Shown in pieces: positions 29,334 to 33,796 of a stretch of DNA of 64,000 bases. The notes beneath the pieces are model-generated. The model had not been told where the DNA came from. It ran no database searches and saw only the letters and a list, made by a program, of their open reading frames with translations. The translations under genes were made by a program, and so were the position numbers. Every line of letters starts with the position of its first letter. Position 1 is the first letter of the stretch. The DNA is from Candidatus Bathyarchaeia archaeon (GTDB taxonomy: Archaea > Thermoproteota > Bathyarchaeia > 40CM-2-53-6), in assembly GCA_049513715.1 (NCBI GenBank), contig JBEKVV010000001.1, positions 544,001-608,000 of the forward strand. The letters run 5' to 3'.

Positions 29334-29481
29334 TGGTGCGGCCGCCGGGATTCGGACCCGGGTTTCCTCGCTGCGTTCGTGCAGCTTTGAGGCTTGGGAA
29401 GCCCCCGTCATAGACCAGGTTGCCCTTCCACCGCTTTCTCGGTGGGAACTGGACCACGGCCCAGCGGAGTATCCCTCTCGC
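29334..29481 (-). tRNA. tRNA-Gly(CCC) with three BHB introns (3/4: 29478-29461; 15/16: 29448-29420; 45/46: 29386-29364); CCA encoded
   Basis: Spliced 78-nt product GCGGCCG TG GTCCAGCCTGGTCTATGAC G GGGGC TTCCCAA GCCTC AAAC CCGGG TCCGAAT CCCGG CGGCCGC A CCA forms a cloverleaf. Each intron has a 4-bp helix flanked by 3-nt bulges. Confidence 0.9.
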
Positions 29482-29663
29482 GCTCACAAGGCCAGCCACG
29501 ACGACCGCAGCTGTGGAAAAAGTGGGGCTGGGAATAAAAGGCTCGCGACATCGACGAGCCGAAGGCTGAGTTTTCAAAGTCAATGGTTGTATCCGCAGTT
29601 GTTTGCGTTCGAGGTTGTTTAATATGCCGACCTTTCGGGATATGGCAATTTCAGTGTTAAGGT

Positions 29664-31578: not shown

Positions 31579-33796
31579 CTAGGCCTCCATGAAGTCTTCC
31601 GCCTTTTGCGGCTCAGGTGACAGGCCTTTGCGCTTCCGAATGTCAGTGATCACTTGCATGAGCAGCGATTGAGGCACCGGTTGCCAATGTGAAAATTCGA
31701 GCCCCCAGAACGCTCTACCCTGTGAAGCGCCGCGCATCACTTCTGAAAGGTCGAACGTTTCTGCTGTGGGAAGTTCTCCGACAACATATACTAGGTGGCC
31801 GCGTTGGTCTACTGAAACGATTTTTCCGCGTTTCTGCGAGATTACACTGGTTGCTGCCCCGAGGAGTTCTGGTGGAACCTTGACGGTTATCCTCTGAACG
31901 GGCTCTAAGAGGACGGGGTTGGCGTTGAGGAAAGCGACGAAGAAGGCCCTGCGGCTCATGGGCATAATTTGGGCCGGGCCCCTGTGGACGGGGTCTTCGT
32001 GCAATGAAATGTCTGAGATCTTTGCTTTGACTCCACGAATTTGCTCGTACGCCAATGGGCCTTCCTTGATCCCCCAGCGGTAACCGGCGATGACCATCTC
32101 CTTCACTTCCTGAAGGTACTGCGCCCCTTTCGTCACCTCAACTAACATGTTGCTCCCCTCGTCGACGCTCCAGACTCCACGGGCTTCGTCTGGCGGCCAG
32201 CCTTCGTCGCGCAGAATCTTGGCCATTTCATGTTTGTCTTGGTACTCGCCAATTTTTCCTTCCTTGATCATGGTTACGATCTTGTCAGGGAGCGGTTCGA
32301 TGGACAAGTAGATCTTGTTGTGCTTGTTGGGCGATTTGCCTTCGACAGGCCCTGCCGCGCTCCTTACGCTTTCACGGTAGATCACGATTGGGGTTGATGT
32401 AACGATTTCAAGGCCAGTTTTGGTGATGAGGGTTTGGGCGATTTCTAGGTGAAGGGTTCCCATACCTGCGATTAGGTATTCCCCTGTTTCCTCATTGATT
32501 TTCGTGACAAGGTTTGGGTCTTCGATGCTGAGCTTCCTGAGTAGGTCGACGAGTTTTGGAAGGTCGCGGCTATGCTTCGGCTCGACAGCCATTGTAACGA
32601 CCGGCTCGGTTACGTAGTGGACTGCCTCGAATGCAGCTATGTCTTTGATTGTGGAAAGGGTTTCACCAGCTCTTGCCGCATCAAGGCCAAGGAGGGCTGG
32701 TATGTTTCCCGCGCTTATGGTCCCAATAATTTCCCTGTAGGGTCCCATGAATATGCAGACTTGCTGAACACGTTGGTCGACGCGTGCACCAAGAAGGTGG
32801 AACGTTGAACCCTCCTTAATGGTTCCAGAGAACAAACGCCCGCTCGCCACAACACCAGCTTGCGGGTCCACGACTATGTTAGAGATTGCCATGACGACCG
32901 GACCGTTGTCGTCGCAGTTCATCATCGCCTGGCCAACTTCGCTGTTAATGTCTCCCTTCCAAATCTTGGGAATGCGGTATCTCTGGGCCACGTGTGGCGG
33001 CGGCATGGATTCAACAGCCATGTTGAGTATGGCTTCGTGCAGTGGCGCACGGTCCTTCAGTGTCTCCACTTTGTCGTTTAAGTATGCGTCAACAACGTCT
33101 GAGAACTTCACACCCTTCTCCTTCGCGATTTCCGCGTTAAACCCCCACCGATCCTTGGCGGACCCCATTGCAACAGTGTTGCTTGCGAAGCCTACCTTCC
33201 ACTTTTCCCGGTATTCAGGTTCCGCGTAAAGTTCAATGAGACGGTTGAACTCGGTGATAATTCTACCAATGCGCTCCTGGATCTGCTCAGAGTTCAACCG
33301 TAGCTCCTTGATTAGGCGGTCAATCTTGTTGATGTATAAGACCGGTCGAACCCGCTCTTCCAATGCCTGGCGGGTTACCGTTTCGGTTTGAACCATGATT
33401 TCCTCGACGGAGTCGACCACGACAACTGCGCCATCAATGACTCTCAGGGACCGGGTTACCCTGCCCGAGAAGTCTACGTGGCCGGGGGTGTCGATGAGGT
33501 TAATGACGTATGCGATTCCGTTTCTCTCGTGCAGCAAGCTAATGTTTGCCGCTTTGATGGTCATCTGGCGCTTCTGCTCTTCCTCCATATAGTCCAAGGC
33601 TAGCGCTGTGCCAGCCATGCCTGGTGACAGAAGGCCTGCAGCGGCAAGGAGGGAATCGCTCATCGTCGTCTTTCCGTGGTCGACGTGGGCGATGATGCCC
33701 ATATATTCCGGACGCAGAACTCGACTACGCCTTTCGGATCTGGTCCTTGTTCGCTATGATCTTCTGAAGTTCCGTTGTGCTCTTGTAACGGACCAT
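31579..33796 (-). CDS. fusA: Elongation factor EF-2, two exons: join(33796-33733, 33704-31579), 729 aa
   Basis: Exon 1 MVRYKSTTELQKIIANKDQIR; AHVDHGKTT, DTPGHVDF, NKID and diphthamide loop HEDPVHRG. Confidence 0.93.
33705..33732 (-). other. Putative 28-nt bulge-helix-bulge intron in the EF-2 mRNA
   Basis: AGGCGTAGTCGAGTTCTGCGTCCGGAAT; central helix TCCG/CGGA; bulges AA^A and AT^A; 7-bp inner stem; removal restores the frame. Confidence 0.85.

Follow-up and report, generated by a model that had tools for sequence, protein, structure and literature searches.

The window, which is the whole 64,000-nt stretch of DNA that was analysed, carries on its minus strand a 148-nt locus that is, very probably, a functional gene and the only one for tRNA-Gly(CCC) in a Bathyarchaeia archaeon from soil, with three local BHB introns. 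The gene and its parts were located as follows.

29334..29481, minus strand: tRNA-Gly(CCC), whole gene, 148 nt, with four exons, three introns and an encoded CCA
29482..29484, minus strand: leader positions -3 to -1 (AGC), which, with G1, provide the 5' strand of the intron 1 central helix
29479..29481, minus strand: exon 1, G1 C2 G3 (3 nt); 18 of 19 aligned genes share GCG, and that of G003 diverges here
29461..29478, minus strand: intron 1 (18 nt) at 3/4, AGCG-CG^A-GAG-ggata-CTC-CGCT-GG^G
29449..29460, minus strand: exon 2, G4 to G15 (12 nt)
29420..29448, minus strand: intron 2 (29 nt) at 15/16, GTCC-AG^T-...hairpin...-GGGC-AA^C
29387..29419, minus strand: exon 3, C16 to A45 (33 nt), with the anticodon CCC as called by ARAGORN
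29364..29386, minus strand: intron 3 (23 nt) at 45/46, CCTC-AA^A-GCTGC-acgaac-GCAGC-GAGG-AA^A
29334..29363, minus strand: exon 4, A46 to A73 plus CCA (30 nt), with the T loop UCCGAAU (C55)

Deletion of the three introns by script left 78 nt (exons of 3+12+33+30 nt) that ARAGORN called as tRNA-Gly(ccc), with a perfect 7-bp acceptor stem GCGGCCG/CGGCCGC, A73 and an encoded CCA. A sequence-only reading of the same DNA had proposed this cloverleaf and three BHB-type introns, none of them at 37/38; the script and ARAGORN reproduced the cloverleaf, and the intron coordinates proved exact, in agreement with the ARAGORN call after splicing and with an alignment of 19 sequences. The archaeal and eukaryal glycine identity set comprises an NCC anticodon, A73, C2:G71 and G3:C70. 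The spliced sequence has all of these elements, with the anticodon CCC, A73 and the pairs G1-C72, C2-G71 and G3-C70, and its acceptor stem is identical to those of two glycine paralogs, which are themselves interrupted.

C2:419817-419913: tRNA-Gly(UCC) paralog, one intron
C3:86163-86290: tRNA-Gly(GCC) paralog, at least two introns

The four exons are collinear and all lie inside the 148 nt, so that the gene is neither split nor permuted. Position 55 of the T loop (29344-29350) is C, compared with the near-universal U. C55 was observed in four of 39 anchored tRNA genes, namely this one, Gly(UCC) at C2:419817, C1:159388 and C9:19666, and two orthologs of Gly(CCC), in G007 and G001, have U55. The G001 ortholog has C at anticodon-loop positions 32-33.

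The exon-intron boundaries share one architecture, in which 3-nt bulges flank a 4-bp helix at each boundary, and this arrangement is kept in the 19 sequences. Since an outer exon helix could not be drawn by hand for any of the three introns, they were classed as HBh'. In this genome alone the cut sites can slide, by the G at intron 1 and by the A-run at intron 3, with the product unchanged. The relatives settle the 3' cut of intron 1, which reads TA^G in G016, G019 and G012, and the cuts of intron 3, which read AA^C and TT^A in G002. The motif and the junctions of the relatives both predict cuts after the second base of each bulge.

In the unspliced window, ARAGORN reported 0 tRNAs and Rfam, at gathering thresholds, 0 matches. 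At loose thresholds RF00005 scored 21.5 bits (cut-off 29) at 29337-29434, with a false 5' strand borrowed inside intron 2; both finders thus miss the gene, as had been anticipated. We then considered whether three BHB-like pairings might bracket tRNA-like pieces by chance. Introns 1, 2 and 3 all satisfy a mechanical BHB rule (4 bp, a 3-nt bulge, an inner helix, 4 bp and a second 3-nt bulge, for intron lengths of 14-130 nt), yet the rule found 1.63 million candidates in the 2.79-Mb genome, which is 0.29 per position by chance, so that a single match proves nothing and the frequency of such matches speaks for a chance origin. Against it stands a custom scan, in which each T arm plus CCA served as an anchor from which the sequence was walked upstream with up to three further BHB introns allowed, the product being confirmed by ARAGORN. 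The real genome yielded 195 solutions, spread over 22 loci, and the reversed genome 0 ARAGORN-confirmed cloverleaves, from 59 anchors and 2959 raw candidates. The scan is a partial census that often returns multiple solutions per locus and that missed several Rfam-found tRNAs because the BHB rule is strict. Four solutions were obtained at the Gly(CCC) locus; three were rejected, having G-U-rich acceptor stems or a truncated D arm, and only the one proposed by the sequence-only reading has an acceptor stem in common with the paralogs Gly(UCC) and Gly(GCC).

DNA searches in a set of 40 genomes of relatives recovered the whole precursor, at 79-85% identity, from 18 of the genus's 22 other genomes; completeness is 75-89% in the four that gave no match. 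Seventeen of these orthologs have the same three introns at the same sites, and in the eighteenth, from G003, introns 2 and 3 are present, together with the 3' half of intron 1. The sequence that this G003 ortholog (L021:1440-1510) has in place of the leader, exon 1 and the first half of intron 1 is unrelated, and gene splitting, a rearrangement or an assembly fault would each account for it; the search for a trans-splicing partner returned, from this 78%-complete genome, only the locus itself and one unrelated site with two mismatches. Over 18 genomes, the mean pairwise identity of exons 2, 3 and 4 was 100%, 97.3% and 98.9%, respectively. For introns 1, 2 and 3 it was 62%, 49% and 66%, and for the flanks, that is the trailer and the sequence further upstream, 28-30%.

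The pairing of the splicing motifs is maintained across this variable intron sequence. In the helices of the splicing motifs, 23 pairs in 19 sequences, 93.8% of the 437 cells were paired, and sliding the 3' partners by 1-3 columns lowered the pairing to 33-56%. Double changes were found in five of the 23 pairs, one of which joins leader position -1 to an intron base; the aligned sequences being close kin, these counts are not independent events. The observed covariation score was reached by none of 500 shuffles; since most columns are conserved, the percentage of pairing lay only slightly above that of the shuffles (93.8 against 91.5). Pairing in the helix of intron 1 (columns 4-7/29-32) was 96.1% over the 19 sequences, and there was one double change. 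In intron 2 the central helix was paired in all 19 sequences (100%), with GC/GU and UA/UG changes, and the inner helix showed double changes at two pairs. In the inner helix of intron 3, one pair was UA in 12 and CG in six sequences and another was CG in 14 and UA in one. The helices of the cloverleaf were 99.2% paired and gave no covariation support because the exon helices are invariant.

RNAalifold, run on 18 sequences with a 45-nt leader and without constraint, recovered both helices of intron 1, the hairpin of intron 3, part of the hairpin of intron 2, the anticodon stem and the T arm. For the 163-nt precursor, energy minimisation gave -72.0 kcal/mol, compared with -63.0 when the BHBs were enforced, and a z-score against shuffles of only -1.39. 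In local folds the BHB of intron 3 was the minimum-energy structure, and introns 1 and 2 gave shifted variants. As the folds neither gave all BHBs nor reached significance, the fold energy was not counted as evidence; a chance origin of the motifs would be in keeping with this lack of significance of the whole-precursor fold.

Related genera of the same family showed a different set of introns in the same tRNA gene. In the ortholog of G023, which belongs to another genus, GCGGCCGTGGTCCAG is uninterrupted, so that there is no 3/4 intron and GCGGCCG is contiguous, and GCCGG-GAAC-CCGGG shows that the 45/46 intron is absent. This ortholog has the 15/16 intron and an insert of roughly 15 nt in the anticodon loop, at the canonical 37/38 site. 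In the G024 ortholog, the 5' part of which is masked, the 37/38 insert is likewise present and the 45/46 intron absent. The uninterrupted G023 sequence confirms two of our three junction calls, 3/4 and 45/46. One family, going by these alignments, has different intron sets in the same tRNA, and the contrast between the genera (3/4 plus 45/46 versus 37/38) provides a clean case of intron turnover inside one family. Taken with the exact junctions kept by the orthologs and the empty outcome of the reversed genome, the uninterrupted sister genus at two of three sites leaves a chance origin with practically no probability, and this explanation is already refuted on sequence evidence.

Intron 1 interrupts the acceptor stem after only three nucleotides, and its central helix is formed by A(-3)G(-2)C(-1)G1 with the CGCU of the intron, C2 and G3 lying in the bulge. 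That this helix would use leader bases had been read from the single sequence, and the alignment bears it out. Position -1 and its intron partner are UA in 13 sequences, UG in four, CG in one (this genome) and unpaired in one (G003), and position -2 is paired as G-C in 13, as G-U in five and unpaired in one (n=19 for both). As the pairing of positions -3 to -1 with the intron covaries, the leader contributes to the splicing signal. After trimming at G1, a transcript would retain a single base pair of the intron 1 helix, and it is a sound structural inference that EndA cuts intron 1 before RNase P removes the leader. With an exon 1 of 3 nt and a splicing helix that extends into the leader, the gene allows a direct test in vitro of whether splicing or 5' trimming comes first.

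Further upstream, the alignment revealed three additional conserved elements.

29534..29549, minus strand: putative promoter, BRE-like GTCGCGAGCC followed by a TATA-like TTTTAT
29502..29509, minus strand: conserved leader block UGCGGUCG (-28 to -21), an imperfect copy of the acceptor 5' strand
29492..29497, minus strand: second leader block GGCUGG (-16 to -11), 94.7% identity

The TTTTAT box lies about 58 nt upstream of G1, and the box or a near variant was found at equal distance in the 18 orthologous upstream regions listed, preceded in the 18 by a G/C-rich stretch that is GTCGTGA- or GTCGGGA-like in most. Its position and sequence suggest that this region is probably the BRE/TATA promoter of the gene. 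The UGCGGUCG block shows 81% identity, compared with about 30% further upstream, and the 4-nt spacer that separates it from the second block 40%. In the four regions that were counted of the 18 listed (L003, L005, L011 and L019), UGCGGUCG starts 29-31 nt after the first T of TTTTAT, and at the distance from the TATA box that is usual in archaea, transcription would start at the GCGG of this block. The heptamer of the leader reads GCGGUCG here, with one U in place of C, and GCGGCUG in five genomes, these being the only variants. RNAalifold paired it with C66 to A73. Because GCGGCCGC is palindromic, the heptamer can pair also with G4-U8, and covariation cannot choose between these partners since both variants pair either way and the partners are invariant. 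For the same reason, that the partners never vary, the covariation test does not reach the two candidates for an outer helix of intron 1, which are the leader GGCU with G4-C6 (from RNAalifold) and the leader GCGGUC with G4-U8 (from the local fold). No acceptor-mimic block was found in roughly 85 nt upstream of G1 in G023, which has no intron 1.

Such a heptamer raises the question of whether the leader GCGGUCG itself might be the true acceptor 5' strand, with one intron of about 45 nt extending up to U8, a mature 5' end at the transcription start and a U5-G68 wobble. The heptamer indeed pairs with CGGCCGC in 7 of 7 positions, is conserved and sits at the predicted start of the transcript, both of its variants keep the pairing, and one of the ARAGORN-accepted solutions of the scan begins with it. 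This solution, nevertheless, needs two adjacent odd introns and has a poor D arm, and no BHB could be drawn by hand for a single long intron. Such a gene structure would also leave unaccounted for the invariant G1C2G3, the covarying helix between leader -3 to G1 and the intron, and the perfect GCGGCCG, which occurs in Gly(UCC), in Gly(GCC) and at the intron-free 5' end of G023. We consider it very unlikely and retain G1C2G3 as exon 1.

With G1C2G3 as exon 1, the heptamer would be an acceptor mimic in the leader, and further examples were found in the genome. Exact copies of the acceptor strand precede a second tRNA gene, as GCCGGGG-N5-GCCGGGG at C1:746942, and a third, as GCCGCCG-N10-13-GCCGCCG at C2:195038; in the orthologs of both (19 genomes aligned for each) the heptamers are invariant and the spacers variable. 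A copy of the gene's own acceptor heptamer, at 6/7 or more bases, was present in the leader of five of 33 genes, compared with 5 of 267 when the heptamers of other genes were used. We propose, as a tentative and on balance rather doubtful idea, that the mimic might serve as a tether and timer, which would pair with either acceptor strand of the tRNA, hold the 3-nt exon close to the tRNA body while EndA and RtcB act, and keep RNase P off until the perfect 7-bp stem displaces it. If this were true, the acceptor-mimic leader would be a recurring processing element of the genus and not an accident of a single gene; in any case, the conserved leader is a concrete new object for testing.

The interruption of Gly(CCC) is matched by the other tRNA genes of this genome, which comprises 11 contigs with 51% G+C, 99.4% completeness and 8.8% contamination. 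Thirty-nine perfect anchors of T arm plus CCA were found, 32 of which, besides Gly(CCC), have a fully complementary 5' strand upstream. Extra sequence is present in 31 of these 32 other genes with a contiguous acceptor strand. Only Arg-CCG (C1:739938-740015) has an uninterrupted 50-nt distance, the others lying 64-177 nt apart, and Gly(CCC) is the only anchored gene whose best 5' strand is split. RF00005 gave 18 matches above the cut-off in the host genome. These 31 interrupted genes and the low RF00005 counts indicate that heavy interruption is a trait of the group, beyond Gly(CCC). With stricter filters (E<=1e-5), RF00005 gave 5-27 matches per genome over 41 genomes of the order (G000-G040), which falls far short of a complete tRNA set. 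Heavy interruption explains why common scanners find few tRNAs, and the tRNA counts by which these MAGs are graded are probably too low, which bears on their quality scores. As a separate observation, tRNA-Asp(GUC) at C4:144551-144656 has a 30-nt intron inside the acceptor 3' strand, after position 68, and rises above the Rfam cut-off only via a false 3' end. Three identical copies of a T arm, acceptor 3' strand and CCA were also seen (C3:166082, C3:181371 and C2:373529), two of them with no matching 5' strand within 450 nt; they may stem from integrating elements that duplicated the 3' halves of tRNAs.

An intron-less Gly(CCC) gene elsewhere in the genome would have spoken against the assignment. 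No second gene was called by ARAGORN with introns allowed, or seen among 23 of the 26 RF00005 matches at E<=1, apart from the sub-threshold match on the gene itself, and the custom scan of the genome for BHB introns gave only the locus at 29334..29481. The comparison of the introns with the rest of the genome, which had also been suggested, was run as a BLAST search with the three introns and the leader, and it found no similar copies elsewhere (best non-self E 0.097). There is, then, no sign here of the intron transposition that was proposed for Thermoproteales.

These data bear also on the possibility that the locus is a decaying tRNA pseudogene whose insertions are junk, GGG codons being read by tRNA-Gly(UCC). 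The silence of ARAGORN and Rfam, the unusual C55 and the G003 copy without recognisable exon 1 would fit such a decay. The exons, on the other hand, are 97-100% identical in 18 genomes against about 30% for the flanks, the insertions hold their helices via compensatory changes, and the TATA-like box is conserved. Nearly all tRNA genes of the genome are interrupted likewise, and C55 is common to Gly(UCC) and two others. We judge a pseudogene extremely unlikely and continue with a functional gene.

A protein-coding gene in the vicinity is interrupted in the same manner. The EF-2 gene (31579-33795, minus strand), about 2-4 kb away, has a 28-nt BHB intron at 33705-33732, in agreement with the earlier claim of an EF-2 intron about 4 kb from the tRNA gene. 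It reads UCCG-AA^A-GGCG...CGUC-CGGA-AU^A, and its removal joins MVRYKSTTELQKIIANKDQIR in frame to NMGIIAHVDHGKTT. Most of the Bathyarchaeia EF-2 loci listed (L033-L057, L066 and L071) have the intron, its inner helix showing compensatory changes, and it is absent from L063, L065, L068, L077, L085 and L101. In four loci of other Bathyarchaeia MAGs (L045, L059, L060 and L061) unrelated coding-like sequence, in the roughly 110 nt before the EF-2 match, replaces exon 1 and the BHB intron, and it ends in a motif resembling the C-terminus of an intein. EF-2 served also to place the host. It is 75-92% identical to loci mostly of Bathyarchaeia or Bathyarchaeota MAGs from soil and peat, and the next tier, at 54-68% identity, consists of Nitrososphaeria and Caldarchaeales. 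This comparison places the host in Bathyarchaeia and outside Thermoproteales, which corrects the link to Thermoproteales-type archaea drawn in the sequence-only reading. A few of the nearest EF-2 loci are labelled as bacterial and are probably mis-binned contigs.

We then examined the processing enzymes. Two genes of the genome match PF01974 and correspond to the alpha and beta subunits of EndA.

L001:1462-2022, minus strand: EndA alpha, 186 aa; best match A. pernix EndA (3p1z_B), E 2.5e-41, over residues 7-185
L002:1474-2052, minus strand: EndA beta, 192 aa; aligns to EndA chains, with no His at the catalytic position

In the alpha subunit, Y123, H131 and K162 align to the catalytic triad Y125, H133 and K164 of the A. 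pernix enzyme (APE), R155 and W183 to its recognition residues R157 and W183, and K39 and K41 to K44 and R46 of the Crenarchaea-specific loop. According to passages of PMC3241643, which name these APE residues, this loop enables the cutting of non-canonical introns. The 192-aa protein without the histidine is, as expected, predicted to be the structural beta subunit. RtcB (578 bits) and the RNase P RNA (188 bits) were also found in the genome. The earlier expectation of a broad-specificity EndA was upheld by this classification into two genes, a catalytic alpha with the loop and a His-less beta; on these alignments the host has an EndA of the broad-specificity (alpha-beta)2 type together with an RtcB ligase.

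From the gene's structure and conservation, from the covariation within its splicing helices and from the enzymes that the genome encodes, all read from the DNA, we infer how the Gly(CCC) precursor would be started, cut and ligated, and in what order. Transcription would probably start about 27 nt upstream of G1. Each intron would fold locally into a relaxed BHB (HBh') with a 4-bp central helix, two 3-nt bulges and an intron hairpin, and the heterotetrameric (alpha-beta)2 EndA with the Crenarchaea-specific loop would cut after the second base of each bulge, the leader being still attached when intron 1 is cut. RtcB would ligate the exons to a 75-nt tRNA plus the encoded CCA, and RNase P would act last, trimming the leader from the repaired acceptor stem.

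In a full-text literature search no report linking Bathyarchaeia with tRNA introns was found among the matches listed; the one paper there with terms for both names Bathyarchaeia only as one of several taxa present at a site. The gene appears to be of a known intron-rich kind in a lineage for which we found no report, and an earlier account of leader-using 3/4 introns is possible. This kind has been documented so far for Thermoproteales, for some Thaumarchaeota and, recently, for Asgard archaea. For Thermoproteales, passages of PMC4033280, PMC8450103 and PMC3218864 describe tRNA genes that carry at most three introns, and a passage of PMC8450103 gives 71 introns in 46 tRNA genes of P. calidifontis. 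The genes of Pyrobaculum and Thermofilum, as such passages describe them, resemble the one reported here in having up to three BHB introns per gene, many of them non-canonical, and an (alpha-beta)2 EndA. They differ in that the present host belongs to soil and peat Bathyarchaeia and that all three introns are non-canonical, with a 3-nt first exon, a helix that extends into the leader and no intron copies genome-wide. The predicted EndA resembles the (alpha-beta)2 enzyme of A. pernix in its alpha subunit, which keeps the triad, the R/W pair and both basic loop residues, and in its His-less second subunit, whereas the best PDB matches of the beta subunit are the EndA of M. kandleri and M. jannaschii and not a crenarchaeal beta.

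In the split tRNAs of Nanoarchaeum equitans and Caldivirga, as passages of PMC4090602 and PMC4033280 describe them, the leader or trailer gives one strand of the splicing motif. Leader positions -3 to -1 play the same role for intron 1 here; Gly(CCC), unlike these split tRNAs, is one contiguous unit, and only the G003 copy might be split. The Asgard archaea are close in the extent of interruption. A passage of one preprint gives 92-95% of tRNA genes as interrupted (bioRxiv 10.1101/2023.11.21.568159), and a second preprint concerns the same subject (bioRxiv 10.64898/2026.10.13.758758). As in the Bathyarchaeia genome, nearly all tRNA genes of some Asgard archaea are, according to these sources, interrupted, often at non-canonical positions and often repeatedly. 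Asgard archaea form a different phylum from the Bathyarchaeia host, and the two are likened by their level of interruption.
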